A stretch of DNA of 64,000 nt from positions 1 through 64,000 of IMG/VR virus record IMGVR_UViG_3300027905_000001; one strand, given 5' to 3'. Origin of the DNA: a virus. A program made the translations under genes and the position numbers. Below the pieces are notes generated by a model. That model did no database searches. It had not been told where the DNA came from and was given only the letters and a program-made list of their open reading frames with translations. The first letter of the stretch is position 1. Each line of letters begins with the position of its first letter. This document shows positions 5,800 to 54,826 of this stretch, in pieces.

Positions 5800-6444
5800 C
5801 TAGACCCCGCTCCTCAACGCCACAATTGTATAAACCTGCCCGCAATACTTAATCTTCATAATTCCCGGTCTGATCGCGTATGTCCCGTCTTTAGGCTTCA
5901 ATAACGTTCCGTCTATCGACAACGCTACGTCAGGCTGAAATAGTTTCTCGCTATCATTTTGCATTTTGTAGAAGTAACTAAAAATGCCAACATCAAAAGA
6001 CGGTGTGAGTTTCAAAGGGATACTAAAGTTCGAGCCAATGATTATAGGTCGACTACCGTTCAGCATTTCGGTTTTTTGCTTGAGAAGGTTGAATATCTCT
6101 TCGCCAGTCTGAGGTTTTTTGTCAATACCCTCTATGATACTGTCATAAAACTCTTGCGGCTTGGACGCTTGAGCAAAAACCCCTGTGTAGTAGTCATTCC
6201 GAATGTCACGGTAAAACTCTGTTTTTTGCTTTTCTTGATATGCCTCAATAATAAGGTTGTATTCAACAGGAGTTAAGTCCCAAAACTCATCAGGTCTTAT
6301 TCCTGCTCGTATAGCGTTTTTATAGACAACTTCCCAGTCCCAACCTATTGCAGGATCGTCTGCGGAGTTTCCGGTGCTGGTTCCGGCGTTACTGGTTTCT
6401 CCACCGCCGGTTGTTCGTTTTTTGGGAATGTCGCCGCGATACAC
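5800..6444 (-). CDS. Tail assembly chaperone extension (T-like part, expressed by -1 frameshift as a G-T fusion spanning 5800..6695)
   Basis: Frame opens in the -1 frame overlapping the G 3' end; no independent RBS; continues IPKKRTTGGGE after the slip site. Confidence 0.6.
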   Translation of the reverse strand: MYRGDIPKKRTTGGGETSNAGTSTGNSADDPAIGWDWEVVYKNAIRAGIRPDEFWDLTPVEYNLIIEAYQEKQKTEFYRDIRNDYYTGVFAQASKPQEFYDSIIEGIDKKPQTGEEIFNLLKQKTEMLNGSRPIIIGSNFSIPLKLTPSFDVGIFSYFYKMQNDSEKLFQPDVALSIDGTLLKPKDGTYAIRPGIMKIKYCGQVYTIVALRSGV

Positions 6445-6695
6445 TCAAATACTTTCTTGATAGCAGCATTAGGATCGCTGTAATCATCAACTAAATCCAT
6501 AGCTTTATCGGCAGTAATTTCCGGCAGCTCGCGTTTAAGTGATTCAGCAAGGATTTCCCCGACCTGCTGGAAGGATAGCTCTTTCAGATTCCATTTATCA
6601 ACATTGAGGTCAAATACTTTTTCAAGCTTAGCGATTCCCTTCATACCTAATCTGAGTGTTCTATCTTGGTCGAGTGTGTAAATTACTGGTAACAT
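6345..6695 (-). CDS. Tail assembly chaperone (G-like, short form)
   Basis: 116 aa acidic protein between major tail and tape measure; contains slippery heptamer near its 3' end. Confidence 0.65.
   Translation of the reverse strand: MLPVIYTLDQDRTLRLGMKGIAKLEKVFDLNVDKWNLKELSFQQVGEILAESLKRELPEITADKAMDLVDDYSDPNAAIKKVFECIAATFPKNEQPAVEKPVTPEPAPETPQTILQ
6417..6423 (-). other. Programmed -1 ribosomal frameshift site, slippery heptamer A_AAA_AAC
   Basis: AAAAAAC in the G zero frame (cca aaa aac); -1 slip reads aaa aaa cga into the downstream frame. Confidence 0.6.
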
Positions 6696-15386: not shown

Positions 15387-15645
15387 CTTTAGTTTCCTCC
15401 CCTTTCGCATCAGGTAACATCTTAAGTAGCTTATCCACTAAATTAGCATAAGCCCTAGTCCCGGAGTAGTACATGGTCACGTCTTTAGCCTTTGCTGTGC
15501 CGCCGTTTATTTTGGCACTAAGCTTTTTGATGATAATGTTTATGTCTGCCATTTGAGCTATGAAGTCGCGGGCTATGTTGCGTTGTTCAGGTTGGATTAG
15601 GGATAGGAGATCGTCGAGGGGGTTGAGTTCGATTGTTGGTTCCAT
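15349..15645 (-). CDS. Hypothetical protein (98 aa) overlapping terL start
   Basis: ORF with 3' end overlapping terL by about 38 nt; no motif recognised. Confidence 0.45.
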   Translation of the reverse strand: MEPTIELNPLDDLLSLIQPEQRNIARDFIAQMADINIIIKKLSAKINGGTAKAKDVTMYYSGTRAYANLVDKLLKMLPDAKGEETKDDLLEFLQRYAQ

Positions 15646-16011
15646 ATTTTAGCCTCCGTATAAAACCAAAAAAGGCGGCTACCAACACATTCCGTTATGG
15701 AGTGCATTGATAACCGCCTTTTGCAGGTAGGTTATGTTATTAAATTAAATGTTGATTTGAATTTGCACCACGCAGGAGCCTTGGTCATTAACCCTAATTC
15801 GCTAATAACTCTGGCCTTACCGCTCTCTCCCACTTTGCCTATCATGGCATCACTGAAGCTTTCATACGTGGTTGATGCCCATATAATCGTCCTGCCTCTT
15901 TTGCTTTCGAAAAAACACTTAGCGCGCCACGTTTTGCGATCGTCCTCTGAGATTGTGTTATACTCACAACCAATACAACTCAAATATCATCATCCTCTCG
16001 TTTTCGAGTCG

Positions 16012-16146
16012 TTAAATCTTCTCCTTAACAGTCGTCTCTACCGTCTTAACTTTTCCGTCATGACAGACAATCTTGACTTCTCCATAGTCGGGGAGTGTGA
16101 TCGTTTTATCCTTGCCGTCGTGGGATAGTGTGATTTTGTTTTGCAT
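16012..16146 (-). CDS. Hypothetical small protein (44 aa), translationally coupled (TAATG)
   Basis: MQNKITLSHDGKDKTITLPDYGEVKIVCHDGKVKTVETTVKEKI; GGAGGT RBS; ATG overlaps upstream stop. Confidence 0.45.
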   Translation of the reverse strand: MQNKITLSHDGKDKTITLPDYGEVKIVCHDGKVKTVETTVKEKI

Positions 16147-17018
16147 TAGTTACCTCCGTTGGGTGATTTCCACAAGTCTCGTTCACGGCACAAAGGACAT
16201 CTACTCAAGCCGTTATCTTCTTTGCTCTTGCAATTATAGCAGGTTATTGGTCGCCATCTGCTGTATTTAAAGCACCTCAACCCATCGCAACTTTCGCCGA
16301 TTGCTTCGGCACAATTCTGACATGACTTTTCTTTTACTTTTATTTCGATTGGCTCCCATTTATTGAGATTGGTACATTTGTAATATTGTCGGCAACACCC
16401 CTCCTCAACATTTCTGCAAGTGGTACAGCCCTTCGCTTGTTTCTCTTCACTGGGCTCACTGCTTGCCCCCATTTTAATTAGTGCTTGTCCGAGTTCGAGG
16501 GCTTCTTGTGGGGTTAATTTTTGATTAAGCACGTAGTACGTGCCATGCATCTGAACACGAACGCTGTCAATGCACCCACGGTCAACCTTCAGTGTCATAT
16601 CATCTTTAGTTATCTCGACATTTTCTATCTCGCCATCCTCATCATTGGCATTGTAGATGGCGTTTATTTGTTCCATGCACTCATTAAAGGTAATAGCTCC
16701 ACTATAAAGAAATGCCAGCCATTTAGACGCTTGTCCTTCTTTATCCACTGGCTTATATGTAATTTTAACGTTGGACATTTTGGGTTCCTCCTCTAACTTC
16801 TTTATTGCTAACTTAAGTTCTTCGAGTACGATTTCAATTCCGTCAAGTGGGTGATGTTTATCGAAAACATGATAACAACCGTCTGGAAGTCTTTTGTATC
16901 TATTTGCCTTTTTCCGCTTTTCGCTCAAGACTTTTATTAACTTCTCTATTCCGAAGCAAATACAGGTTAGAGACGTGATCGTTATTATGCAAAATGCCAA
17001 GGTTAGCATTAGTTGCAA
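16146..17018 (-). CDS. Membrane-anchored Cys-rich protein
   Basis: 290 aa; N-terminal hydrophobic helix; C-terminal third with many CxxC pairs. Confidence 0.5.
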   Translation of the reverse strand: MQLMLTLAFCIITITSLTCICFGIEKLIKVLSEKRKKANRYKRLPDGCYHVFDKHHPLDGIEIVLEELKLAIKKLEEEPKMSNVKITYKPVDKEGQASKWLAFLYSGAITFNECMEQINAIYNANDEDGEIENVEITKDDMTLKVDRGCIDSVRVQMHGTYYVLNQKLTPQEALELGQALIKMGASSEPSEEKQAKGCTTCRNVEEGCCRQYYKCTNLNKWEPIEIKVKEKSCQNCAEAIGESCDGLRCFKYSRWRPITCYNCKSKEDNGLSRCPLCRERDLWKSPNGGN

Positions 17019-17341
17019 CCCTCCGATTCCTGCACTATCTCTACTCGCTTATCACAAATAGGACAGTGAATAGTCGGTCTGCCAACAAGCTTCCTGCTTA
17101 TGTAAAGTTCAATCTTGCCACACCTTGGGCAGTCGCCGTATGTCATAATTCTAGGGTTTTTGACGCTTCCGTGGCCTACAGTTGGGATTAGTTGGCCTTC
17201 GTTTTTAGCTTTACACTTCTCCTTAGATCTATTTATGAAAATTATCATTGCCCACGAAAAGGCAACGCAAGATGCCATAAGAAGTATCCACGCAATCTCA
17301 AGAAAGAAGTTTGCTATCTGCTGGTTCATGCCGCACCTCAC
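17009..17341 (-). CDS. Small membrane protein with C-terminal zinc ribbon
   Basis: 110 aa; transmembrane segment IAWILLMASCVAFSWAMIIFI; CPRCG...CPICD. Confidence 0.5.
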   Translation of the reverse strand: MRCGMNQQIANFFLEIAWILLMASCVAFSWAMIIFINRSKEKCKAKNEGQLIPTVGHGSVKNPRIMTYGDCPRCGKIELYISRKLVGRPTIHCPICDKRVEIVQESEGCN

Positions 17342-17859
17342 TTCGACTTCAATAACCTAAACTTCTGTTTCGCATATTCAGGGATGAAATTATCTAAATC
17401 CTTTTGAAACAATAGGTAGAGATTGAGTGACAATCTATTCGACGAAAAGAAGTAGATCGGATTGAAGTACCATTGAGTGATTACATCATCACCAATCTTT
17501 ACCTCGATCTTAGCCATAATTCTTTTCTTAACCATCCTATTAAGGAATAAAACAGTATGTCTTTCGGTATCTCGGATTACGTTTGCCATTTGCGGTATGT
17601 CCATTGCCTTTATGCCACCATTGCCACGGTAGCCGATCATATTAGTTGTCGAGTAAACTTTCTTACTTAACAAAAACAGATTAGCTATATCAGACTTGGT
17701 TATTTCGTTTGGCAATTCTACATCCTGAAACGTTTTGACGAAACTGCTTTTATTCCAAAAGAGATAACCTTTTTCTTCGTCGAACATATCTTTGAAGTAT
17801 GTCTTCTTTGTGCTCACAACGTTACCATGGTCATCTGTTATTTCGGTCGCCCTTATCAT
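17338..17859 (-). CDS. Hypothetical protein (possible winged-helix DNA-binding protein)
   Basis: 173 aa ORF coupled to downstream gene; weak resemblance to RepL-like winged-helix proteins. Confidence 0.4.
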   Translation of the reverse strand: MIRATEITDDHGNVVSTKKTYFKDMFDEEKGYLFWNKSSFVKTFQDVELPNEITKSDIANLFLLSKKVYSTTNMIGYRGNGGIKAMDIPQMANVIRDTERHTVLFLNRMVKKRIMAKIEVKIGDDVITQWYFNPIYFFSSNRLSLNLYLLFQKDLDNFIPEYAKQKFRLLKSK

Positions 17860-18020
17860 CGAATCACCTCTAAAATCGTGGGTACATTTAAGGCGTTCTA
17901 TGTACCTGTAAAATTTGACTACCTAAAATGCTGAAACCCTTGGTATAAGCGACTTTAAGGGTTCTGGATTAAGTAAATCATGCAAACTCACATATATTAT
18001 ATACGTGTGAATCTGCATGA

Positions 18021-18329
18021 TTAGAGTTGTTTTGCGTCTACCTTCTCCACCCAAACTATATCCCCATTAGCATCGAACTTCAGCTCATCATCATGCCTAG
18101 CTCTAGTTTGTTCGTGGCACTTCCTGCATAGGAGTTCGAGGTTATTCCAGCTATAGCACTTCTCAGGGTTGTTAACGGTGTCCCATGCTGTTATAGGGTC
18201 CTTGTGGTGGACTTCTTCGCCTTTGGATCCGCATTGCTCACAGAGACCGAACTTAGAGGCAAAGAAAGCTTTGCGGCATTTGATCCAGGCGCTTCGTCCG
18301 TAGAATAGTTTGAGTTGGCCTTGACTCAT
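18021..18329 (-). CDS. HNH endonuclease (terminase-associated type)
   Basis: 102 aa; CEQCG...VHHKDP...LELLCRKCHEQ (HNH with zinc-binding Cys pairs). Confidence 0.85.
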   Translation of the reverse strand: MSQGQLKLFYGRSAWIKCRKAFFASKFGLCEQCGSKGEEVHHKDPITAWDTVNNPEKCYSWNNLELLCRKCHEQTRARHDDELKFDANGDIVWVEKVDAKQL

Positions 18330-18871
18330 TGGGTATCGTTTGCGATATCAACCGCATAGGGGAGTATCATTACCTTTAAGTTGGGGCATTGGGATTGTAG
18401 ATCGTTGCGCAGCCTTTCTATATCGTCACAACGTAGTAATGCACCAAGTTTCAGGACTAATGTATCGCTATTCATGATAGTAGCGGTGCTAATGATATAA
18501 TTAGTCTGAAAACTCATCTTTTTGTTAATCTCTTCAAGCATCGATTTCACATCTCGCTCAGAGTATTCCTTTTCTCTACGCCATGTTACGGTTATTGCGT
18601 CGTTGCTTTCTTGTACTTGGACATTATAAGTTGGTGTAGATTCCGCAAGGCCAAGTAAGTCAAATCGGTTTGAGTAGCCCCTGTATATCATACTTCTAGT
18701 CATAAAGTCGTTCTCAACGGCTACGACAAGAACATCCCTAAGTACCTCAACTACTCCTTCTGGATTAGATTGCAAAAGGTCTTGGCTTATAGAGAATGTT
18801 CCTCTTCTGTCGAGCAGGACGCTTTCTTTGCGCTTGTTTTGGCAGAAAACGTTTTTACCTAAGTTACCCAT
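18326..18871 (-). CDS. Hypothetical protein (likely start at ATG 18871; track start 18919)
   Basis: ORF with GGAGTGAGG RBS before internal MGNLGKN; no motif recognised. Confidence 0.5.
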   Translation of the reverse strand: MGNLGKNVFCQNKRKESVLLDRRGTFSISQDLLQSNPEGVVEVLRDVLVVAVENDFMTRSMIYRGYSNRFDLLGLAESTPTYNVQVQESNDAITVTWRREKEYSERDVKSMLEEINKKMSFQTNYIISTATIMNSDTLVLKLGALLRCDDIERLRNDLQSQCPNLKVMILPYAVDIANDTQ

Positions 18872-19047
18872 TTTCCTCACTCCTTCTTGTTCGGTTAGGT
18901 CATCGTCTCTAGTGTTCATGCAATTACCACCTTTTACCTATACTTACGAGAACATAAAATTACTTACCAAGTTTTTGCCGAATTTCTGGGGTGAAATCAA
19001 AAAACACCACTCAGTATCACGAGCCTTTGGTACACGGCAGATGGTTT

Positions 19048-19099
19048 AACCCCCTGGTATAGGGGTTGGGGGGTGCCTTTATCCCCTCTTTTATACCAG
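19048..19099. repeat. G/C-rich nested inverted repeats downstream of terS (possible packaging-site or structured element)
   Basis: AACCCC(19048-19053)/GGGGTT(19062-19067) hairpin nested within CTGGTATA(19054-19061)/TATACCAG(19092-19099). Confidence 0.35.
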
Positions 19100-19230
19100 T
19101 TTTCGACATAGTTGGGGCATCAATCCGGCATTTAACAACTTCCAGCGCTTGGTTAGCGCATCCGGCTGGCTATTCACCGCCTAAGTTATTCTTAGCCTCA
19201 CATCTCACCCCTGCCTCAGAAGTCTCCTGC

Positions 19231-20173: not shown

Positions 20174-20202
20174 TTGCATATGTCTTGACACCATGATATA
20201 AT
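20174..20202 (+). promoter_or_regulatory. Sigma-A-type promoter for the plus-strand island (TTGCAT-17-TATAAT), overlapping TTGACACCATGATATAA motif
   Basis: -35 TTGCAT 20174-20179, -10 TATAAT 20197-20202; shared motif also present at 21448. Confidence 0.5.
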
Positions 20203-20236
20203 AAGTTAAGATCTAATTTTGAAGGAGGTAAACGGC

Positions 20237-20632
20237 ATGACAAAGCTCGAAATTGCTAAAAACATTAATGCCATCAAGGATTTAGGCCGCATTATTGCAA
20301 CGAATTGGGAGATGGACTTTGTTGAAGGAGGAATCTATGACAATAAGGGCAATGTCGAAAGCTGGACTGACCGTGATAATTCAAAAGTGGCCTTTAAGCC
20401 CGAAAGCACCGGCACGATAACTTATGTCCTTCAATGCAATAAAGTCCCCTGTCACGTAGTAGACTACACTAGCACTGATGAAACTCGCGCCCTTGGCGCT
20501 ACTGGCTGTGAAGATGAAGCTGAATGCCTGGTATTACCTGAAACAAAAATGATAATTACCTACGTTTCCACTGAAGATGATTTCAACGAAATGGGATATT
20601 ACTTAGTGGAAATGGAGATTGTCAATGAGTAA
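20237..20632 (+). CDS. Hypothetical protein (131 aa)
   Basis: GAAGGAGG RBS 8 nt before ATG 20237; no motif recognised. Confidence 0.6.
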   Translation: MTKLEIAKNINAIKDLGRIIATNWEMDFVEGGIYDNKGNVESWTDRDNSKVAFKPESTGTITYVLQCNKVPCHVVDYTSTDETRALGATGCEDEAECLVLPETKMIITYVSTEDDFNEMGYYLVEMEIVNE

Positions 20633-21230
20633 TCGCCATGGACACCCCCTTACTTCTGAACAAAAGGGAGCGAGGGAGATTGAATATCGGAAAATGGCAT
20701 TGGAATTTCATAAAGAAACAGGACGTTCGCCCCGGATGGCAGACTTACCTTTTCCTTATAAAATCTTTAAGGTTCACGACACGTGGAATGCATTTCTTGA
20801 AGATTGCGGGCTAGAGGTTAACCGTTTAACCACGGACGTTGAGAAATATTCTTTAATATTCGATTACAAGGAATTAGCTAAAAACTTAGAACGGACTCCT
20901 TACGCATTAGAATTTTATAAAAAATTTGGTTGCCAATACGCAGTCCGCAAATTATTTGGATCATGGAATGCATTTGTTAAAGCTTGTGATCTTAAATTAA
21001 ATAGATTCACAGGAGCAGAAAAAGAAGAACTTGTGGAACGCGTCTTGAAATTAGCTAAGAAATTAGGTAAAACACCTACAACTCGTGAATTTAATGCACA
21101 CGCAAAGAAAAGTAATCTATGCACGACGATGGTTATATGTCGGTATTTCGGAACATGGACGGAATGCCTTGAGTTTTGCGGGTTAGAGCCTAACCAAAAT
21201 AAAAATTTTAAGCGTAGAAAGAAGGATTAG
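20619..21230 (+). CDS. Protein with three tandem ~55-aa repeats (tentatively homing-endonuclease-associated HTH-like repeat)
   Basis: Repeats ending WNAFLEDCGLE / WNAFVKACDLK / WTECLEFCGLE. Confidence 0.55.
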   Translation: MSMSNRHGHPLTSEQKGAREIEYRKMALEFHKETGRSPRMADLPFPYKIFKVHDTWNAFLEDCGLEVNRLTTDVEKYSLIFDYKELAKNLERTPYALEFYKKFGCQYAVRKLFGSWNAFVKACDLKLNRFTGAEKEELVERVLKLAKKLGKTPTTREFNAHAKKSNLCTTMVICRYFGTWTECLEFCGLEPNQNKNFKRRKKD

Positions 21231-21232
21231 CG

Positions 21233-21397
21233 ATGGCAGAAACAACAACCGACGACCGCGAACGCATGACACTACGCATCCCCCAGGACATTTGGCGCAT
21301 GATCAAAATGGACCTGATTGACAAAAAAGAAAAGTCGGCCAATGAGCTTATCACAAACTTAATATATGAGCACTACAAAGTACCCCGGCCGCAATAG
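21233..21397 (+). CDS. Ribbon-helix-helix (CopG/Arc-like) DNA-binding protein, 54 aa
   Basis: Not in ORF track (under 60 aa); MAETTTDDRERMTLRIPQDIWRMIKMDLIDKK...; GAAGGA RBS; start overlaps upstream stop. Confidence 0.55.
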   Translation: MAETTTDDRERMTLRIPQDIWRMIKMDLIDKKEKSANELITNLIYEHYKVPRPQ

Positions 21398-21447
21398 CTG
21401 GGGGTTTTCTTTACCTAAAAATACTTAATATTTATTGTCTTAATGCC

Positions 21448-21476
21448 TTGACACCACGACATAAAAGATGTATTAT
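21448..21476 (+). promoter_or_regulatory. Sigma-A-type promoter (TTGACA-17-TATTAT) with long GC-rich leader
   Basis: -35 TTGACA 21448-21453, -10 TATTAT 21471-21476; shares CTTGACACCAYGAYATAA with the 20185 region. Confidence 0.55.
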
Positions 21477-21648
21477 TAACACATGGAAAACAGCACTCCA
21501 GCCCAATCCAGTGCAACAAACGCTTCCCCCGGCCAATTGCGGTCCGGGTCCGCCAAGAAGCCGAGAGAGAAAAGTTGACCGTGTGTCAGGGAAGAAGATT
21601 AATCCCGACAGGCTACAAAGGGAGCCGGGGAAAAAGGAGTTTTAAATT

Positions 21649-21858
21649 ATGAAACAAACTTATTACAGCGTTGGTTATTACTCAGGAAGATCGAACAGCA
21701 CTAGCACGGCGTTTTTTGATACTAAAGAGGCGGCTGAAAAATTTGCAGATCATGATTACAGGGATAACGTGGTAGCGCATCACGTGAGCAAGCCTGAGAC
21801 GATTGCGAAATACGATGAGCTAGTTGCTATGACGGCGTTTGAGCTTAGAGACCGTTAG
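21649..21858 (+). CDS. Hypothetical protein (69 aa)
   Basis: AAAAAGGAG RBS then ATG; no motif. Confidence 0.55.
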   Translation: MKQTYYSVGYYSGRSNSTSTAFFDTKEAAEKFADHDYRDNVVAHHVSKPETIAKYDELVAMTAFELRDR

Positions 21859-21971
21859 GATTTGCAGATGGCACCGGCCAGCACCCGGTGTAATGCACTA
21901 GCAGGCGTCCAAAGTCGCCGCAAATGCATCCCGACAGCTCGCAAGGAACGGGGAAAAGGAGGTCAGGACAG

Positions 21972-22418
21972 ATGCTCTATCACAGATTTACTAACTCATC
22001 AAACGTAATGTCCAACTGGGGTCACGCAATGTTTGCGGCCAACAGGGACGCGGTCGAAAATTACGGTAGTAAAGAGTTTATCTTTAAATCATCTAGGGAC
22101 AATAGCAAAACGATCAAGTCGCTCAAATCACTGATTATCAAAACTTGGAAGTACGATCAAAAAAATGGCTTTACCGGGGACTTTGGCAACGGCTGCACAG
22201 ATGATTACTACTACAACGTCAAGGATAATGCAGTGGACGCTATTAGTATTTACAACAGCTTTGACCCGTCTAGCGTTGTGGAGAGCGCCGATGCTTGGGA
22301 CTCCGAGCTTTATCAATGGTTTTGGGAGCGTATCGCGGAGCCTAACGGCATTATGGCAGTTACAACTCAAGATGGGGCAATAGTATTTGATGCAGACTTA
22401 ATTAAGGAGGTATGTTAA
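21972..22418 (+). CDS. Hypothetical protein (148 aa; track start 21924)
   Basis: GGAAAAGGAGG RBS before ATG 21972. Confidence 0.55.
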   Translation: MLYHRFTNSSNVMSNWGHAMFAANRDAVENYGSKEFIFKSSRDNSKTIKSLKSLIIKTWKYDQKNGFTGDFGNGCTDDYYYNVKDNAVDAISIYNSFDPSSVVESADAWDSELYQWFWERIAEPNGIMAVTTQDGAIVFDADLIKEVC

Positions 22419-22679
22419 ATGTCTAATGAGGATGACGTTATGTTTTTCAAAATAGCAAAGGTTAAAGCCGCTATCAGCAGGGTCCTAGACGGGTGCGTAA
22501 ACGAGTTGCCGGATATCCAGTTTGGATGGAGCGGATCAGTTATCGAGGTTTATTTATCCGGCGGTAATTATCAAGTCCGCAACCTTATCGAGTCCCATTT
22601 TGTAAATAGCAGGAGGTATAAAGGCGTTACAATTACAAACAACGACACCAAAAAGCGTATCAGCTTTATTTTAAATTAA
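22419..22679 (+). CDS. Hypothetical protein (86 aa)
   Basis: AAGGAGG RBS, start abuts upstream stop. Confidence 0.55.
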   Translation: MSNEDDVMFFKIAKVKAAISRVLDGCVNELPDIQFGWSGSVIEVYLSGGNYQVRNLIESHFVNSRRYKGVTITNNDTKKRISFILN

Positions 22680-22700
22680 GAAATTGAAGGAGTGTTAAAA

Positions 22701-22919
22701 ATGAAACGATTAGACATTTTTAAAAGCGAAGGTGGATACAGATTAGCATTGGGAATCTACAACGACAGCCCCGTAATTGACAAGTCTCCTTGGTTCGAAA
22801 CCAAGGAAGAGGCCGAAAAAGCAAGGCGCGAAGTCATAGAAGAAGATGAGCGAGAAGCCAAAATTGAGCAGTATATCCAAGATGGCAATATCGAGGCCCT
22901 CGAAAACATGGATAAGTAA
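22701..22919 (+). CDS. Hypothetical protein (72 aa; track start 22692 GTG)
   Basis: GAAGGAG RBS before ATG 22701; acidic C-terminus. Confidence 0.5.
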   Translation: MKRLDIFKSEGGYRLALGIYNDSPVIDKSPWFETKEEAEKARREVIEEDEREAKIEQYIQDGNIEALENMDK

Positions 22920-23013
22920 TTGCAGAGGATTAGGAGCCTAAAAACTCCTAATAATGCGCTAGGCAAGCGGTTCCAAGCCCGCGCCAATCGCAATTTTGAA
23001 AGGTGGAGCAATC

Positions 23014-23250
23014 ATGAAATACACCATAGCTGAATACCACGGCATAGACCGGCACCAAATGCAAGCCCATACCGAGGAAATCATTACCAAGCTTGAATTT
23101 ATTCGAACAACATGCACGGATGCCGAATCGCTCGAATACACTGACGCCCAACTCGAATTTTACCGCGAAGAACTAGCCAGTAAATCCCTGCTTATGTCAT
23201 CATGGTGGGAAGTTGAGAACTACATGCGGAAAGGTAGGAAAATAGCATGA
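23014..23250 (+). CDS. Hypothetical protein (78 aa)
   Basis: AGGTGGAG RBS before ATG 23014. Confidence 0.5.
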   Translation: MKYTIAEYHGIDRHQMQAHTEEIITKLEFIRTTCTDAESLEYTDAQLEFYREELASKSLLMSSWWEVENYMRKGRKIA

Positions 23251-23438
23251 CCATCTACATCCATGAGTTTTACAAGGACAAGGAAAAGGCGCTCGCATTG
23301 GCTGAACTACCGGACGAACTAGATTATCACCGATTTGTCCACGGCTGTGAGCCTAAAAAGGTGAACATAGTCCCTTATTGGGCAGATTGCGACAAGTACA
23401 AGGCGAATAAGTCCACCATGACACTGTTTATTAGCTAA
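23247..23438 (+). CDS. Hypothetical protein (63 aa)
   Basis: Start overlaps upstream stop (ATGA). Confidence 0.45.
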   Translation: MTIYIHEFYKDKEKALALAELPDELDYHRFVHGCEPKKVNIVPYWADCDKYKANKSTMTLFIS

Positions 23439-23518
23439 CATCAAGGCTTTTAGCCTTGGCTCAGCCGCTTTTTGAGCGGTTCAGCGAGGACTAAAAACGA
23501 ATGAAAGAGGTAATTTAC

Positions 23519-24439
23519 ATGAGCATGATCAACGAACAACTAGCCCAACGATCAAAGGAAAACATGAGTTTTTCCGACTACAAACCCGGCAGCGCAACGG
23601 CTGAATTCAACCAGGAAATAGCCAACGTCACCACGTTAGTTGAATCGGCCAAGCTCAGGGTATCCGACGAAGGGAAAGCCAAGCTAGATCGTTTCCTAGC
23701 CTCTTACACCTCTCGTTATGCCGCATGGACCAATAAGCGCAACGCAAATGGTGCAGGACATGTTAGTGTTATGATCGCAGGCCCAGCTAACTACAACATG
23801 AGAGCGCACGAAAAGTACATGAGCCGTGAAGGTAATCTCTGGAAAGAATACGAGGAATTCCGAAACCCTGAGTATAAAATTTCCTCCATCGTCGCAGGTG
23901 ACAGAGTTATAAAATCCAATGATGTCAACGCTATTGAAAAATTGCAGGAGAAAATAGACGGACTTGAAAAAATGCAGGAATTAATGAAAGCTTGTAACGC
24001 CATCATCCGTAAAAAGAAGCTGACCGACGAAGAGAAGATTGCTGCAATGGTAGAAGCTGGAGCCAGCGAAAAAGCCGCAAAAGAAACCTTGACCCCTAAT
24101 TTTATGGGCAGAATAGGTTTTGCCTCTTATTCGCTCAGTAATAACAACGCAACGATCCGAAACGCCAAGCAACGAATATCCCAGCTTGAGAAGATCGCTG
24201 CACGCGGCACGCAAGAGACTGTCATAGAATCAGACGCGGAGGAAACAAACGGCATACGCATAGTTGACAATGTTGAAGCGCATCGGCTGCAAATATTCTT
24301 TAATGGCAAGCCATCGGCAGAAGTTCGAACACAGTTAAAGAAAAATGGATTTAGGTGGACGCCTAGTATTTCCGCGTGGCAGTCGTATCGAAGTGAGAGC
24401 GCAAACCGGGCAGCGCGTGAAATAGTGGCAGCAATGTAA
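23519..24439 (+). CDS. Hypothetical protein (306 aa) with conserved-looking C-terminal RLQIFFNGKPS...GFRWTPSISAWQSY module
   Basis: AAAGAGG RBS before ATG 23519; C-terminal motif resembles small domains seen in phage/conjugative-element proteins (tentative). Confidence 0.5.
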   Translation: MSMINEQLAQRSKENMSFSDYKPGSATAEFNQEIANVTTLVESAKLRVSDEGKAKLDRFLASYTSRYAAWTNKRNANGAGHVSVMIAGPANYNMRAHEKYMSREGNLWKEYEEFRNPEYKISSIVAGDRVIKSNDVNAIEKLQEKIDGLEKMQELMKACNAIIRKKKLTDEEKIAAMVEAGASEKAAKETLTPNFMGRIGFASYSLSNNNATIRNAKQRISQLEKIAARGTQETVIESDAEETNGIRIVDNVEAHRLQIFFNGKPSAEVRTQLKKNGFRWTPSISAWQSYRSESANRAAREIVAAM

Positions 24440-24523
24440 TTATATCGCGGGACCATCTTTGGCCCTGCTCCAAATGTCCGATTATGGGCACTTGGAGGAG
24501 AATCAAAATTTAGAGGTGATCAA

Positions 24524-24712
24524 GTGGCGGAAACGTGGTTCTCTCGACTTAAAACAGAGATAGAAGATTCGAGAGACTTGCAAGAAATTCTTGGTGTTAA
24601 AGTTATCGAGCATCTTTTGTGGAACAATATCTCTCGCGAACAATACGAAACTCTCTCTAGCCTGCGCGTAAAAAGAATCCTGGAAAATTGGCACGAAGAA
24701 TTTTTGGCTTAA
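24524..24712 (+). CDS. Hypothetical protein (62 aa)
   Basis: Short ORF with GGAGGAG upstream. Confidence 0.4.
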   Translation: MAETWFSRLKTEIEDSRDLQEILGVKVIEHLLWNNISREQYETLSSLRVKRILENWHEEFLA

Positions 24713-24767
24713 ATCCACGCCGGACTATTCCGGTTTTTTCCCAACTAAAATTAAGGAGGAATAACTT

Positions 24768-25382
24768 ATGTTTCATGCGTTCACGCTCGAACAAGCGAAC
24801 CTCAGAGAGGTCCAAGGTTGGAAGGTCGGCCAACATGTCCAAGTCAAAGAATGGCGTGGTACTTACGAAATCGAAGGCTACCACCAATACGGAAGGCAAA
24901 ACGAGTACACCACTGTATACCTTGCCAAGCTCAAGAAAGACGGTACTAAGAGCAAATACAGCGGCGATACACCTATCGCTAACCTCATGCCATTGGGAGC
25001 GGCACAACCAACAACAGACAGCGCAGGACGAACAGCACTGCAGGCGGCACAGGAGCTATTCGGTAGCGGCTTTGCTAAACACGGATGGTATAACACGGAT
25101 CGCGAATCACTGGTAAAGGTTGAGACGATCAGTAAGACAGGACGCGTCAAGGTGCAAGATATAAGCGTCAAGGCTGGAATTACGGCACGTTCAAAGACTG
25201 TAGATGGACATAAAGTTTACAGTCAAGAAGATCGCCTGGTAAACTTTGCGGATCTCGAATACGGTCTAAGTGGAGATATAAAAACATTCACGCCGCGCCT
25301 TTTTTGGGGTGAATGGGGCTTTTGGCATGATGGGGAAATTATCAAGGCCCCAGATATGAAGCTTACGTGGTTGCTAGATTAA
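24768..25382 (+). CDS. Hypothetical protein (204 aa)
   Basis: AAGGAGG RBS; last gene of the island, followed by terminator. Confidence 0.55.
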   Translation: MFHAFTLEQANLREVQGWKVGQHVQVKEWRGTYEIEGYHQYGRQNEYTTVYLAKLKKDGTKSKYSGDTPIANLMPLGAAQPTTDSAGRTALQAAQELFGSGFAKHGWYNTDRESLVKVETISKTGRVKVQDISVKAGITARSKTVDGHKVYSQEDRLVNFADLEYGLSGDIKTFTPRLFWGEWGFWHDGEIIKAPDMKLTWLLD

Positions 25383-25392
25383 CATAATTTAA

Positions 25393-25416
25393 AGCCGGAC
25401 ATCATCCGGCTTTTTG
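25393..25416. terminator. Rho-independent terminator closing the plus-strand island
   Basis: AGCCGGA ... TCCGGCT stem followed by TTTTT. Confidence 0.65.
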
Positions 25417-25439
25417 GCGTTCCCGTTATTATCTTTCCG

Positions 25440-25835
25440 GCTCCATAGGCTTATACGCCACCCTAGCCCATGCAAGCCCTAGAACGCCGTATAAGCCCCC
25501 ATAATCTCCGTGTGGTCACTATGCAACCTATCGTTATCCAAGGCCCTTATATACCGTTCTGTGTCCTATCATATCGCAAGCCCTACAAGACGTTTTAAGC
25601 CCTCGAAATATCAAAGGCATAACTATGTCAATCCCTAACTATTCAACGCCATACAGGTGCCATTCTGCGCCTGTGATAACGCTCTGCGCCTATGTGCCGA
25701 TACCCTAACGACGGCGGCAAAACGTCCTCTAATTACCTCAATTTGTCGCCTATTGTCGAAGTTCGCCTGATTTCACCCTGATTTTATGACCATATTTCGA
25801 CATTCCCAAAATTCTCTCGACATTCCCAAAATATC
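25440..25835. repeat. Repeat-dense non-coding region (iteron-like direct repeats)
   Basis: Seven or more AAGCCCT-type motifs (including GCAAGCCCTAGAACG / GCAAGCCCTACAAGAC), TCTGCGCCTRTG x2, TCGACATTCCCAAAAT x2. Confidence 0.6.
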
Positions 25836-25893
25836 GGTTTCTTGTAATTTTTATAAAATCGCTCCACCGAAAAAATATCCCCAGCTTGTAAAA

Positions 25894-26133
25894 TTATTCG
25901 TCCTCGAATCGACAACCGCGGTTACTCTTCATCATCCGATCTCTTGCCATAAACGCCATACTGTTCTCGAACTCTTCCCATTTTCGAGCTGTCTCGTATC
26001 GCTTGTATGCACTTAGGTATTCGTCGCAATATGAAGCAGGAACATTGGCGCAGCTAGAACAACTAGAACTAGAGCGTCCTATATCGCGATATATTCGGGG
26101 TTTGTAGCATCTGCATCGAGGCGGTTCTCTCAC
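25894..26133 (-). CDS. Small Cys-rich protein (79 aa), GTG start
   Basis: TAAGGAGGG RBS 8 nt before GTG 26133; CRCYKPRIY...CSSC...C. Confidence 0.45.
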   Translation of the reverse strand: MREPPRCRCYKPRIYRDIGRSSSSCSSCANVPASYCDEYLSAYKRYETARKWEEFENSMAFMARDRMMKSNRGCRFEDE

Positions 26134-26293: not shown

Positions 26294-26429
26294 ATTAAAG
26301 CATGCTTTTTTAGTTTGAATTAAAGCATGCTTTTTTGGTTTTTGTTTATGTAATTAAGGCATGCTTTTTCTATGTCTGAAATTAAGGCGTGCTTTTATGT
26401 ACCACCATCAAGATTAAGGCATGCTTTTT
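26294..26429. repeat. Five tandem copies of palindrome-containing site ATTAARGCRTGCTTTT (candidate protein-binding array)
   Basis: Copies start at 26294, 26319, 26353, 26381, 26413; each contains AAGCATGCTT-like palindrome. Confidence 0.7.
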
Positions 26430-26703
26430 GAGTAAAAAAGTGAACACCCTCAATTAAGAAGGTGTTCGAGTGAGAATAGAGAAGGAGGACAAAATTAAAA
26501 GCCCTTGCGAGCTTGTCAAATATTCAAAATAAAGCCGGTTCCAGATCGTAGAACCGGATTCTCCTTCTACACACGGTAGATGAGTTAAATAAACGAAGCA
26601 CCGAACGACCACGATACGTAGGTCAATTCGATGCTTCTCAATGTTATAATCATAAACCTTTTACAGCTCAAATGTGGTAATAAATCGGTAATATTCTGGT
26701 AAT

Positions 26704-37730: not shown

Positions 37731-38651
37731 CTAACTTCTTCCTCTGAGGATTTCGGAGAGTATGGGGTCCGTTTCCCAAGGTTTAGAATCTCCTTGATCG
37801 ATTGAATTGCTTCCAGTTTTGTTACCTCCCTTGGCTTTTAAGTTCTTGCCCCATTTAACACAATTTCCCAGCCACGTATTAATCTGTGATCTTGGTTTAC
37901 TTTTTACATCAAGCGGCTTATCTAGTTTGTCGAAAGACCAGTCCTTAATCGCTCCCAAGATATCTATGGTTGGGTATCGTTCTTGAAGCTCTCGGTACAT
38001 TTTCAATTCCTTCGCCCTGTCAATCGGATAATCCTTAACTTTTTCAAGTGTGCGAATTAGGTCTATTTCATCAGGCAGAAGAATGAGATCATTTTCTTTT
38101 CTTTCTTTTACTTCCTTTCCTTTACTATTCTCTTCTTTAGGGATTTCTGTAGGAAATAATCCATCTTCAAGAGGATTAATGTCTACATTAACTACAGATG
38201 GTAGGTTGTTACCGTCAACATAAACCATATTTACAGTAAAATTATCAGTTTGCTTAGGTGGAGAAATAAGTAGATATTCAGATATGAGCGTTATCTCTTT
38301 GCGTCTTTCTACAGATTTGAAGTATCTTTTTTGGATTCCTCCGCTAGTAAGTATTTCGTATTTTAGATACAAGGATGAATTGAAAAATTCCCACTTAATG
38401 CAATCAGAAACTATCTCGGTGATAATATTAATGTCTACATTAACCTTACTGGAGAGTAGTAATTGTTCGCGCTCTGTCCATTTATAGAAATATCCTTCCT
38501 TATATATTTTCATAAGAAGTTTGATTAAAACCGCAAATCCAGTGATCTTATGCTTTGCTTCAATAAGCAAAACTTTGTCGTCTTGGTCCATGTCAATATC
38601 GAGGGGAAAATAATCCAATCCCTCTTTTTGCGGTCTTGCCAAGTCATTCAC
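37731..38651 (-). CDS. Phage replisome organiser (DnaD-like, Lin1244/Lin1753-type N-terminal domain)
   Basis: 306 aa; N-terminal FPLDIDMDQDDKVLLIEAKHKITGFAVLIKLLMKIYKEGYFYKW. Confidence 0.65.
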   Translation of the reverse strand: MNDLARPQKEGLDYFPLDIDMDQDDKVLLIEAKHKITGFAVLIKLLMKIYKEGYFYKWTEREQLLLSSKVNVDINIITEIVSDCIKWEFFNSSLYLKYEILTSGGIQKRYFKSVERRKEITLISEYLLISPPKQTDNFTVNMVYVDGNNLPSVVNVDINPLEDGLFPTEIPKEENSKGKEVKERKENDLILLPDEIDLIRTLEKVKDYPIDRAKELKMYRELQERYPTIDILGAIKDWSFDKLDKPLDVKSKPRSQINTWLGNCVKWGKNLKAKGGNKTGSNSIDQGDSKPWETDPILSEILRGRS

Positions 38652-50854: not shown

Positions 50855-51694
50855 TCACTCATTGGCTTTCACAAACCGTTCGCGCATATCGTCGATAAGT
50901 TTCAGATCGTTTTCGGTTAGTTGGGCATCATCAGGGACCTTCTCTGTCAACGCCTCCATAACGCTCTCATTCCACCTAATCTGATAGCCGCTATGCCCAT
51001 TCTTCACATAAGGGAATTCTTCGCCATAAGGTTTTCCAGCTTCCGTAATACGCCAATCCTTATTGCCTTTGGCATCTACTTGTTGTTCCAGTAATCCTTT
51101 AGCGAGTAATGCCTTATTCGCATTGACCGCACTAATTCCAAGACGTTTACCAACTTCGGTAGGATTTAAGTATCCGGTTTCGTGTTCGGCAGCAGGGAGA
51201 CATTTCGCAATATCCTGTAAATTTAGGCCGCTGTTTGTTTCTACTGCGCGAATACATGCGGCCTGGGCTATGCCGATACTTATACCTAGCTTTTCTTTGA
51301 GATATTCCGCTGTGTCAAATGCGTCTTTGATTGCTGGCCGGACGCGGGAAGATGTTCTCTTTTGCTTTGGCGCGGTTAACGTCTTCTCCATTTCCTCAAA
51401 CTTGGTCACGTAAGTTGCTGTGAAGAGTACGCCCTTTTCGCCTGTCATTTTGTTGGCTACCATGTCGCAGCCTTTGCGGGTTAGGAGGTAGCAGGGGCGG
51501 CTTTCGCCTTTGGCATCAATGTAAGTACTCGGGATGAAGAAATCTAACGAACGGAATTCTCCGTTGGTTAAGTGGGTTTCATACGTAGCGATCTTAGCGA
51601 GTAGGTCAGAATGCCTAACGTCTGTCATTTCGGCGGCATCCCGGCTGTCAATTACATAAACCCCGTCTTGGTTGATAACTTGCAATTTGTTCAT
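50855..51694 (-). CDS. Phage regulatory protein, Rha/antirepressor-like N-terminal domain
   Basis: 279 aa; VIDSRDAAEMTDVRHSDLLAKI near N-terminus. Confidence 0.55.
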   Translation of the reverse strand: MNKLQVINQDGVYVIDSRDAAEMTDVRHSDLLAKIATYETHLTNGEFRSLDFFIPSTYIDAKGESRPCYLLTRKGCDMVANKMTGEKGVLFTATYVTKFEEMEKTLTAPKQKRTSSRVRPAIKDAFDTAEYLKEKLGISIGIAQAACIRAVETNSGLNLQDIAKCLPAAEHETGYLNPTEVGKRLGISAVNANKALLAKGLLEQQVDAKGNKDWRITEAGKPYGEEFPYVKNGHSGYQIRWNESVMEALTEKVPDDAQLTENDLKLIDDMRERFVKANE

Positions 51695-51697
51695 ATT

Positions 51698-52363
51698 TCA
51701 CCCCCTCGCTAACCGCTTTTTGGCGATATTTGACTTTTTAATCAATAAGTCTCTAATTTGGTAGTAATCGAATCCAAGTTCATAAAGTACAGCAATCTTA
51801 TGTGTTTGATTCTCAACAAGTTCCATTTCGCCAGAAGTCATAAAGTCGAGTGCGACAGCCTTTTTATCCGCTCCACGTTCCTTACGGATACTTGCGGCAA
51901 TTTTACCAAGAGCCGCTTTGTAGGATAGGTCGATAAAAAGTTTGTAATCCCACTCGCTACGATTTGGATTTTCCTTAATCCTATCTAGCAAAGGTTTGCG
52001 AGTTGGTTTGAGTGTCATTTTACCGATTTGGCGTTTTTGAAGTTCGGTTCGCATTTCGTAGAATTGGCGAACGAGTTCGGTTTTGAAATCAATTACAGTT
52101 TCGGTATTTCTCAGGAAGGTAACTAAGAGTGTTGCTTGCTCCTCGTTCAGGTGATAAACCTTTCTAATTTGCGTACCACCTTTTGTTTCAAAGGGTGTCA
52201 TTTCAAATGATACCCTTCCGAACTTTTCGAGCCGTTGCTGATGCTTTTCAATCAATAGATAAACTGAACGGTTTGCAATTTTTGCATACTCAGCGATTAC
52301 ATCACTCGTTGTAAATGGTATAGCCTTGATAGAGTTCGGTTCAAGAAAAACTAAGTCACCCAT
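51698..52363 (-). CDS. Phage regulatory protein, Rha/ORF6N-like
   Basis: 221 aa; IPFTTSDVIAEYAKIANRSVYLLIEKH N-terminal motif. Confidence 0.55.
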   Translation of the reverse strand: MGDLVFLEPNSIKAIPFTTSDVIAEYAKIANRSVYLLIEKHQQRLEKFGRVSFEMTPFETKGGTQIRKVYHLNEEQATLLVTFLRNTETVIDFKTELVRQFYEMRTELQKRQIGKMTLKPTRKPLLDRIKENPNRSEWDYKLFIDLSYKAALGKIAASIRKERGADKKAVALDFMTSGEMELVENQTHKIAVLYELGFDYYQIRDLLIKKSNIAKKRLARG

Positions 52364-53347: not shown

Positions 53348-54826
53348 ATGCATGGAATACTATACCTGCGCAAAAGCAGAGAAGATGAGCAATATGAAAA
53401 AAATACTGGCGAAGATGTTCTGCAAACCCATCGCGAACGTTTGGTTATGCTCTGTAAGTCGCGGGAAATTACCTTCGACGAACGCGCAGAGGTACGAAGC
53501 GGTGATACGATCGCAGGTCGGCCTAAATTTCAGAATATACTAGATACGGATCTCCCCTCTGGTCAATACTCTTGTATCATTGTTACTGAAATTTCTCGAC
53601 TTGGCAGAGGGGACATGGAGGATGCAGGAAGAATATACAAAACCATAATCCACAACGAGATTAAGATTGTCACGCCGAATAAAATATATGATCCGTTAAA
53701 CCCTTCCGATCTTCGCCAGCTAAGGTTCGAGCTATTCATGTCTCGGGAGGAATACGAAAGCATTAAGGAAAGACTATGGAATAATAGAAATTACCGGGCA
53801 ACACAAGGTTATGCCGGCAATTATATTGTCACGCTCGGTTTTCGCCAGTCCAGGGGGATAGTCGAGATAATCCCCGAAGAGGAAAAATTAGTGCTTGAAA
53901 TATTTACGATGCGCTCTGAAAATTACTCCTATCAAGAAATAGCGGATTACTTTAATTCCAGAAATTTAAAGACAAAACGCGGAACAAAGTATCATGAATC
54001 TACAATATATAAGATATTAAAAAATCCCAGGTATATAGGAGTGGCTAAGTGGCAAGGCAAGGAATATATAGCTAAGCACCCTGCGATAGTCTCATTGGAC
54101 CTATGGAACTCTGCGCAGGATATCAACGCTGAAAGACATCACAAGAGACGAGGGTCAAAAAACGATAACCCTTATCTAGTAGAGCTATACTGTCGAGAAT
54201 GCGGGCAAAGGATGTACGGGGAACGCTCTACCCCGCAAAGGGTAATAGATGGTGTTCGAAAGCTATATAAAAGCAGAGACATCTATATTTGTAGGGGCAG
54301 AAAAAGCATCCCTAAATGTTGGCACCACATAGGAGCCAGCGTTGTTCACTCGACCATCCTTGATGAGCTTGGGAAGATAATATCAGATCCGCAGATTTTT
54401 CTTGAGTTAGTCAACGAGAGAGAATCAAGACTTGGCGTCGATACTAATGGTTTATCAGATCAAGTGGATGAATTAAATAAGCAAGTCAAGGATAAAAACA
54501 TCCTTTTGGTAAAAATAGAGAACGATTATGAAAAAGGCGACCTATCCGCTTTGCTATATACTAAACACGTTGAAAAAATATCCAAAGAAATAGCATCTAT
54601 TGAAGGTAGGATAAAAAAAATTAAGGCCGATTTATTAAAATCAGCCATTAAGATTAGTCCTCCTATGGAATTACAATCAATTTTGAAAACATTCCTAAAT
54701 AACTGGAACGCCTATCCTAATAGTGACAAGAAGCTCATCATTAGATCATTTCTTCCCAGGGTTGAGGTGAACAAGCAGGGTGAATTCTTTATCGCTATTA
54801 CTTTGCCTGATTCTATCGAAATTTAG
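53348..54826 (+). CDS. Large serine recombinase (prophage integrase)
   Basis: 492 aa; N-terminal resolvase-type catalytic region (YLRKSRED), recombinase domain, Cys-containing zinc ribbon, coiled-coil C-terminus. Confidence 0.85.
   Translation: MHGILYLRKSREDEQYEKNTGEDVLQTHRERLVMLCKSREITFDERAEVRSGDTIAGRPKFQNILDTDLPSGQYSCIIVTEISRLGRGDMEDAGRIYKTIIHNEIKIVTPNKIYDPLNPSDLRQLRFELFMSREEYESIKERLWNNRNYRATQGYAGNYIVTLGFRQSRGIVEIIPEEEKLVLEIFTMRSENYSYQEIADYFNSRNLKTKRGTKYHESTIYKILKNPRYIGVAKWQGKEYIAKHPAIVSLDLWNSAQDINAERHHKRRGSKNDNPYLVELYCRECGQRMYGERSTPQRVIDGVRKLYKSRDIYICRGRKSIPKCWHHIGASVVHSTILDELGKIISDPQIFLELVNERESRLGVDTNGLSDQVDELNKQVKDKNILLVKIENDYEKGDLSALLYTKHVEKISKEIASIEGRIKKIKADLLKSAIKISPPMELQSILKTFLNNWNAYPNSDKKLIIRSFLPRVEVNKQGEFFIAITLPDSIEI

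Follow-up and report, generated by a model that had tools for sequence, protein, structure and literature searches.

The window, by which we mean the whole stretch of DNA analysed (64,000 nucleotides, 64 kb), is a prophage in Candidatus Desulfosporosinus infrequens and represents a temperate Bacillota phage. The 204-aa protein encoded beside the repeat-rich segment studied here (25420-25893; below, the stretch) is 100% identical to a protein of this bacterium, and a Logan contig (SRR6195974) is identical to the window across 15 kb. A variant is represented by a 79-kb JGI contig, whose Cys-rich protein is 99% identical. The late operon starts on the minus strand with the ArpU-like activator and its promoter, followed by the small Cys-rich genes (Table 1). 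The second of the latter (79 aa, 26133-25894) most likely starts at the GTG codon at 26133, behind a GGAGGGAG ribosome-binding site. The stretch lies where the initial annotation had placed it, between the hairpin terminator of the accessory island (25391-25413) and the 3' end of the Cys-rich genes (25894). The hairpin terminates the plus-strand island, and it has a terminator-like score on the minus strand as well. It follows from this gene order that the stretch sits between two converging transcription units, just past the start of the late operon.

Further along the minus strand, the gap between the TerS and TerL genes is about 3.8 kb long (15411-19230) and contains an HNH endonuclease gene (18329-18021) and several genes of unknown function, an unusual layout that is odd for a packaging module. 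At the other side of the window, past the serine integrase gene, the segment 55051-55450 is repeat-rich, AT-rich (GC 0.31) and non-coding, and includes TAGGACTGATTGTAGGACTT; it may be the attachment-site region.

The island encodes a 312-aa protein whose sole match is a PHROG labelled 'primase', with no Pfam match above the threshold, and also an HNH_repeat protein (20619-21230). The family of the 204-aa protein is found in conjugative elements too (loci L030, L031, L032), beside ArdC, relaxase/NikA, ParA and AcrVA2-like genes. Given this context, together with the HNH_repeat protein and the 'primase' match, the island resembles an anti-defence, or 'leading region', gene set. Inside the same plus-strand island there are two matches to the type-P5 twister ribozyme (21863-21919 and 22921-22982, both on the plus strand; 39.7 and 44.1 bits, above the Rfam gathering threshold). 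They have the same direction and bracket three small ORFs (21924-22919); none was found in nine related loci.

Table 1. Coordinates of the features in the window and, in the last six lines, in related loci (L numbers).
Feature	Position	Strand	Remark
Serine integrase gene	53348-54826
Rha-type regulators	50855-52363
Lin1244-type replication protein gene	37731-38651		replication genes from near 37.7 kb onward
Early genes		-	extending down to the ArpU-like gene
ArpU-like late activator gene	27276-26704	-
Repeats ATTACCA/ATTACCG/ATTACCA	26675-26703	-	three 7-nt repeats 11 nt apart; outside the stretch
Two small Cys-rich genes	26257-25894	-
Pair AAAATATC(N7)CTTGTAA (D5)	25828-25891	+	spacing 44, 75% identity; just past the Cys-rich gene stop codon
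Exact 16-mer pair TCGACATTCCCAAAAT (D6)	25797-25832	+	period 20; minus-strand reading ATTTTGGGAATGTCGA
Weak sigma-70-like site TTGGGA-17-TAAAAT	25781-25809	-	9/12 matches; -35 inside the proximal 16-mer
Two short direct pairs, TTGTCG and CCTGATTT	25743-25786	+	spacing 10 and 11, respectively
Direct pair TCTGCGCCT(G/A)TG (D7)	25664-25694	+	spacing 19
Direct pair TAACTAT(G/T)...	25620-25651	+	spacing 16
Module A GGGCTTAAAACGTCTTGTAGGGCTT	25578-25602	-	two GGGCTT motifs 19 nt apart; best match in the window to the B-C block of the relatives
Module B GGGCTTATACGGCGTTCTAGGGCTT	25474-25498	-	two GGGCTT motifs 19 nt apart; reverse complement of AAGCCCT/AAGCCCC motifs
Imperfect inverted repeat GGCTTATACG...CGTATAAGCC (I1)	25448-25497		19-nt arms, 79% complementary; encloses module B; also in predicted folds
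Hairpin AAAGCCGGA-CATCA-TCCGGCTTT (inverted repeat I12)	25391-25413	both	GC-rich; left border of the stretch
Accessory island, 5.2 kb	20219-25382	+
Island promoter TTGCAT-17-TATAAT	20174-20202	+	read directly; back to back with the short TerS upstream region
TerS (small terminase subunit) gene	20130-19231	-
TerL (large terminase subunit) gene	15410-13686	-	HK97-like type; portal gene beyond
Element copies, L013	5980-6086, 6976-7090		further copies in other loci
Element copies, L022	3703-3816, 2895-2947
Element copies, L016	11714-11827, 10262-10337
Xer-like tyrosine recombinase gene, L025	8943-9836		end of reverse-strand island, at the position of the stretch
Xer-like tyrosine recombinase gene, L027	6708-7619		same
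Xer-like tyrosine recombinase gene, L020	8926-9816		same

The stretch contains no convincing ORF, as had been stated in the initial annotation. The longest frame has 42-43 codons' worth of amino acids (42-43 aa), there are 4-12 stops per frame, no credible gene is found in 25383-25893, and an independent gene caller applied to the identical Logan contig places no gene in the stretch. Autocorrelation shows no period-3 signal in the stretch; the peaks are instead at lags 10, 11 and 19, that is, in helical phase (10-11 and 19-20). The GC content is 0.45, as in coding DNA, with a short AT-rich patch at 25840-25893. The strands differ in composition: the plus strand has 141 C and 71 G, so that on the late (minus) strand G is about twice as frequent as C, and the GC skew of -0.31 is the strongest among all ORF-poor stretches.

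The observation of repeats is confirmed. Two exact copies of TCGACATTCCCAAAAT start at 25797 and 25817, 20 nt apart from start to start, and two copies of TCTGCGCCT(G/A)TG are at 25664 and 25683, with the spacing of 19. The count of seven or more AAGCCCT-type motifs, given initially, holds under a loose definition, but not for the exact word, as AAGCCCT occurs three times (25474, 25578, 25597). There are four AAGCCC and eight CCCT in the stretch, all on the plus strand, and no AGGG. Pairs not named earlier are TAACTAT (25620/25636), TTGTCG (25743/25753), CCTGATTT (25766/25777) and AAGCCC (25474/25493). Altogether there are six adjacent direct pairs, whose periods are 20, 19, 19, 16, 11 and 10; each of them has one contiguous matching core (16, 9, 8, 7, 7 and 6 nt), followed by a diverged spacer. 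A seventh pair, at 44, is looser.

The repeats are enriched relative to shuffled sequence, which was the check proposed with the initial observation. At offsets of 6-30 nt, the stretch has five exact runs that are 7 nt or longer, compared to 0.83 in 2000 dinucleotide shuffles; the observed number was reached in a fraction of 0.002 of these shuffles, and the 16-nt run in none. Among the 474-nt segments across the 64 kb, the stretch ranks in the top 1-2% by repeat runs, the equally high-scoring segments including the neighbouring array at 26294-26435 and the low-complexity coding part of TerS. Its counts of AAGCCC and CCCTA are reached by about 0.5% of the segments. Fourteen nucleotides of the 16-mer (CGACATTCCCAAAA) have a third exact copy at 6420-6433 (minus strand), inside the tail-region gene 6345-6695; this partial copy is probably due to chance.

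Several families of short direct repeats in an intergenic region had been taken initially to be typical of replication origins or of arrays of binding sites, with the remark that the replication module lies elsewhere. The remark is correct, as the replication genes, including that of the Lin1244-type protein (37731-38651), are about 12 kb away. The stretch is similar to iteron origins (lambda ori, oriV of iteron plasmids) in having direct repeats in non-coding DNA at a roughly helical spacing, with the autocorrelation lags of 10-11 and 19-20, and it has the short AT-rich patch at 25840-25893. Unlike these origins, it has no multi-copy iteron family: there are six different pairs, none of them a family of at least three long (17-22 bp) regularly spaced copies, the sole long repeat (16 nt) is present in two copies, and Tandem Repeats Finder reports no array inside the stretch. 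Nor is there an adjacent initiator gene, the neighbours having no initiator domains, or a clear unwinding element; we see no clear DnaA boxes and no sizeable AT-rich segment, and the GC content of 0.45 is coding-like. Finally, the stretch has no similarity to plasmid or phage records and is absent from relatives. The origin suggestion is thus unsupported, and it is extremely unlikely that the stretch is an iteron-type origin or a second origin. Whichever of the readings considered below holds, a false candidate for a second replication origin is removed.

Another known type of direct repeats is that of late-activator sites. The sites bound by activators of the ArpU family and related ones are 7-nt direct repeats between the gene of the activator, which they follow immediately, and the late promoter (Quiles-Puchalt et al. 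2013, PMC3753634). In the window, ATTACCAGAAT-ATTACCGATTT-ATTACCACATT begins at the base after the ArpU-like stop codon and is followed by TATGATTATAAC (26643-26654, minus strand), and in L011, the nearest relative, the layout of repeats after the ArpU-like gene is identical. Judged by their sequence and position, the repeats at 26703-26675 are predicted to be the expected late-activator sites. The stretch shares with Ltr/ArpU sites the presence of short direct repeats in non-coding DNA between the late-activator and terminase genes. However, the Ltr/ArpU repeats directly follow the activator gene, whereas those of the stretch differ in sequence and are situated downstream of the first late genes; moreover, the former are protein-binding and control late transcription, while for the stretch such a role is only proposed. 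As the expected repeats are at 26703-26675, 0.8 kb from the stretch, we rejected the stretch as the ArpU-binding site.

The stretch as such has no counterpart in the collections searched. Megablast and blastn against phage records produced no match, nor did a search against plasmid records. When IMG/VR was scanned for exact occurrences of the 16-mer and of a two-copy pattern, chance matches alone came up, as checked by blastn. The dual GGGCTT pattern, applied to IMG/VR and metagenomes, yielded elements of related phages, described below, and about 20 probable chance matches, but nothing window-like.

Related loci were retrieved via the ArpU-like protein (75-82% identity) or the 204-aa protein, not via the motif. 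The window and its relatives share the ArpU-like protein, the Cys-rich proteins, island genes and host machinery, while the TerS of the relatives is unrelated to that of the window. The plan of the related loci is a late activator, a Cys-rich gene, at least one reverse-strand island, and then TerS. Coding in relatives had been named initially as an observation that would speak against the non-coding assignment. The position of the stretch is indeed coding in relatives, but the DNA there is not homologous to the stretch. In L025, L027 and L020 it is occupied by a gene for an Xer-like tyrosine recombinase (Phage_integrase and SAM_1 domains in L025 and L027, assignment by sequence similarity in L020), in L010, L029 and L036 by small RHH or NikA-like genes, and in L022 there is no spacer at all. 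Since close relatives have no spacer there, the stretch is dispensable for this phage type. No homology was revealed when the stretch was compared with all related loci by blastn, nhmmer and six-frame tblastn, or when the recombinase and RHH genes were compared with the stretch by tblastn; hence the stretch is not a decayed copy of those genes. Shared 10-mers are uninformative (215 positions matched at the background of 235), and as shared 12-14-mers are expected by chance, we relied on a test with a 22-position pattern, described below.

The recombinase genes bring to mind phage attachment sites. Similar to the stretch, lambda attP-type regions, with arm-type Int sites and tandem Xis sites, contain several short direct-repeat families in a few hundred bp, and it is the position of the stretch that is taken by the tyrosine recombinase gene in relatives. 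Unlike attP, the window has no recombinase gene there and no core-type inverted repeats were identified; further, no non-coding DNA adjoins the recombinase gene in the relatives.

A conserved non-coding element, approximately 110 nt long and read on the late-gene strand, precedes TerS in the relatives. It is formed by block A GTTTTGAGCTTAGTAATTAGC, a hairpin, block B TTAATTAGTGGGCTTAGG and block C ATTGATTGTAGGGCTTGTGGTGAGG, in this order, followed by the ribosome-binding site and the start codon. By its profile, each locus of the relatives has 2-4 copies of the element, every copy in the late sense, and no border of their reverse-strand islands lacks one. Full copies precede late-sense genes such as TerS and are followed by a ribosome-binding site and ATG. 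At other copies, the terminator hairpin of the next reverse-strand island comes directly after the element, the same arrangement as in the stretch. The element appears to exist as two subtypes, which precede island terminators and late genes, respectively. The islands of the relatives start at a fixed point right after AAGGA of the element. The copies that a single phage carries are paralogues that have diverged, rather than duplications of the core.

The A/B hairpin of this element has 21 pairs. In the alignment 91.8% of the cells are paired, compared to 77.8% in shuffles, of which none of 500 was as high. For covariation, the score of 0.484 compares with 0.249, 12 pairs are changed on both sides, and controls with a slid partner have 31-55% of cells paired. 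With G-U pairs making up about one quarter of its cells, the hairpin can form only on the late-sense strand, which suggests a signal in a single-stranded nucleic acid, either RNA, the simplest option, or DNA. The element has no match in Rfam. The lambda nut and HK022 put sites act in cis, as RNA, and enable RNA polymerase to pass terminators. The element of the relatives, and the stretch only by extension, may be likened to them, as it combines a conserved linear motif with a hairpin and is repeated in one orientation within a transcription unit, with some copies just before terminators. Unlike nut and put, to which it has no sequence or Rfam relationship, it has a representative without the hairpin, namely the stretch itself. 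As a lead, the island-boundary element of the relatives is more interesting than the stretch.

An alternative to a transcriptional signal is that the boundary elements are points of insertion and excision for the Xer-like tyrosine recombinase, the stretch being a landing pad with two copies of the site. Indeed, the copies flank the islands as direct repeats, the islands start at the fixed point after AAGGA, the element contains a long imperfect palindrome, and in L020, L025 and L027 the recombinase gene is exactly at the position of the stretch. However, the island of the window has no recombinase, the copies in one phage are diverged paralogues rather than duplicated cores, and the share of G-U pairs in the hairpin, about a quarter, indicates a single strand, most simply RNA. 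We consider a recombination site to be very doubtful.

On the minus, late-gene strand, the AAGCCCT motifs of the stretch form two modules GGGCTT-N13-GGGCTT with the cores 104 nt apart. This exact pattern occurs only twice in the 64 kb, both times in the stretch and on the minus strand. The bases common to both modules constitute a 22-position pattern, with which we searched the protein-retrieved loci. The best matches, with 3 mismatches of 22, are inside the L013 and L022 elements upstream of late genes, in the late sense; in shuffled sets of loci, none of 100 reached 3 mismatches, the best being 4, once. In the opposite direction, the profile of the B-C block of the relatives has its top hit in the window at 25602-25575, on the minus strand, with an E-value of 0.52; the chance of the top hit falling in the 474-nt stretch on the minus strand is about 0.4%. 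We conclude that, as far as sequence likeness can tell, a relationship exists between the GGGCTT modules and the core of the element in the relatives, the likeness having been seen first and tested afterwards. The core of the B-C block, two GGGCTT-type motifs 19 nt apart, is present twice in the stretch, and the orientation and position also agree: late-gene sense, at the border of a reverse-strand island, beside the terminator at 25391-25413. The full-element profile has no significant match in the window, and R1, a covariance model of the hairpin, has no match in the stretch and scores best (E-value 0.11) elsewhere in the window. Hence the stretch holds the core only, not the whole element. 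The TerS upstream region of the window was also aligned with the element of the relatives; the alignment was unconvincing, and we do not claim homology.

In the light of these data, an array of binding sites, the second meaning considered initially, is plausible and partly strengthened, as the contiguous cores are spaced by 10-11 and 19-20 bp and the AAGCCCT pairs match the element of the relatives, whereas the function of the sites is putative and judged from sequence.

The position and composition of the stretch also call to mind the packaging site of a cos phage that depends on HNH, where the recognition repeats for terminase and the cut site would lie. Many temperate phages of Gram-positive bacteria have cos after the late activator and before the terminase genes, and cos regions are typically repeat-rich non-coding DNA. 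The stretch has both properties, the TerL is HK97-like and an HNH gene is nearby. Against this, 5.3 kb, taken up by the island, separate the stretch from TerS, and no obvious symmetric cut site was found. Moreover, the GGGCTT modules are common to phages with unrelated TerS and occur there several times per genome, which is unexpected for a packaging signal. As the TerS of the relatives is unrelated, the shared GGGCTT motif is not TerS-specific and is unlikely to be a terminase recognition site. A cos function is therefore very unlikely.

The right part of the stretch contains a weak sigma-70-like site on the minus strand, 25809-25781, and the second 16-mer is situated 20 bp upstream of the proximal 16-mer of this site. 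As sigma-70-like sites in the region are not enriched (3 compared to 3.4 in shuffles), this is only a candidate promoter. With the hairpin at 25413-25391 it could delimit a separate minus-strand gene, about 380 nt long, for a non-coding RNA. The order of the promoter-like and terminator-like sites on this strand is right, the composition is strongly strand-biased, and the fold-energy z-score of the minus strand is -3.2. On the other hand, the plus strand folds equally well (-3.1), the promoter prediction does not exceed chance expectation, and the predicted fold has the GGGCUU motifs largely in paired segments. There are no homologues, and Rfam 15 has no match in the stretch at the gathering threshold or even up to E-value 10; a search for tRNA and tmRNA also found none in the stretch. 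A separate RNA gene seems quite unlikely. The idea of a sponge RNA was considered as well. Sponge RNAs display their motifs in loops, and we rejected it because of the predicted pairing of GGGCUU.

The stretch could also be a functionless relic, the remnant of islands and boundary elements that were gained and lost, the tandem pairs being slippage duplications that have not yet decayed. This would agree with the abutting genes, without a spacer, in the relatives, with the stretch being unique to one genome, with its coding-like GC content, and with the survival of the element core while the hairpin is gone; two cores 104 nt apart are what is expected after deletion of the island between them. 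Yet phage genomes rarely keep 0.5 kb of useless DNA, the matches in the pairs are contiguous whereas neutral decay predicts scatter, every G-rich motif retains a single orientation, and there is no trace of coding homology or of the period-3 signal. We regard the relic as rather unlikely, if a serious competitor.

The explanation that we prefer, tentatively and with somewhat less than even confidence, is that the late operon and the island meet in the stretch at a composite cis-regulatory junction, where copies of the boundary element are combined with a weak promoter-like segment overlapped by the tandem 16-mers. The left half (approximately 25440-25640), read on the late strand, would provide two diverged cores of the boundary element, GGGCTT-N13-GGGCTT; the right half (25780-25893) would provide the weak promoter-like site with its -35 box in the tandem 16-bp repeat; and direct pairs of 10-20 bp would lie between the halves. 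The repeats may be recognition sites in the late-gene orientation, at the level of either the DNA or the RNA being transcribed, for a factor that the phage group has in common; the obvious candidate is the small Cys-rich protein encoded just upstream. The sites might then help late transcription to restart at, or to pass, the two-way terminator and the antisense island on the way to TerS. Several observations do not favour this junction: no collection searched contains a homologue of the whole stretch, the hairpin, which is the best-supported part of the element in the relatives, is missing, close relatives have no spacer at the same position, the promoter-like site is weak and of a kind that is not enriched, and neither strand folds better than the other as RNA (z about -3 for both).

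In a wider and more speculative version, the elements of the relatives and the stripped-down copies in the stretch would constitute an undescribed cis-acting module that lets temperate Bacillota phages carry reverse-strand anti-defence-like cassettes in the late operon. It might be either a nut/put-like RNA signal carrying late transcription through two-way terminators or a single-strand hairpin site for cassette exchange by the Xer-like recombinase, with the stretch as a multi-site version. This generalization we consider improbable.

If the repeats are working sites, they mark the way in which this phage group keeps the packaging and structural genes expressed despite islands on the opposite strand, and they offer a testable example of phages insulating and regulating swapped-in cassettes. 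Genes of these islands are known otherwise from conjugative elements, where they are in the 'leading' regions, the first to be transferred. Even as a mere relic, the stretch would mark gain and loss of islands at a recombination hot spot.

Several smaller observations concern the same region. The word TGTCGAA, which we take to be the Spo0A-box consensus, is present at 25754 (plus strand) and 25796 (minus strand), and direct reading shows the near copies TGTCGCC and TGTCGAG beside them. In the entire window it occurs 17 times at 7.7 expected, and none of 100 shuffles reaches 17; these are dinucleotide shuffles, which leave gene content uncontrolled, and most copies are inside genes. A reading of these copies as Spo0A boxes, the host being a spore former, is a tentative idea.

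Between the presumed late promoter and the Cys-rich genes there is a leader of about 380 nt, with four terminator-like hairpins at 26442-26617 (minus strand). Five such hairpins were found in the region at 1.0 expected, and in the relatives, too, a terminator hairpin is situated ahead of the Cys-rich gene. The leader hairpins upstream of the Cys-rich genes may serve regulated read-through. Finally, the segment 26294-26435, which follows one terminator-like hairpin (26467-26442, minus strand) and precedes the Cys-rich genes, contains five copies of ATTAARGCRTGCTTTT with the palindromic core AAAGCATGCTTT at irregular spacing (25, 34, 28 and 32); a promoter-like site is at 26298-26270 (minus strand). 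The array is found at no other place in the window and looks like an operator array.
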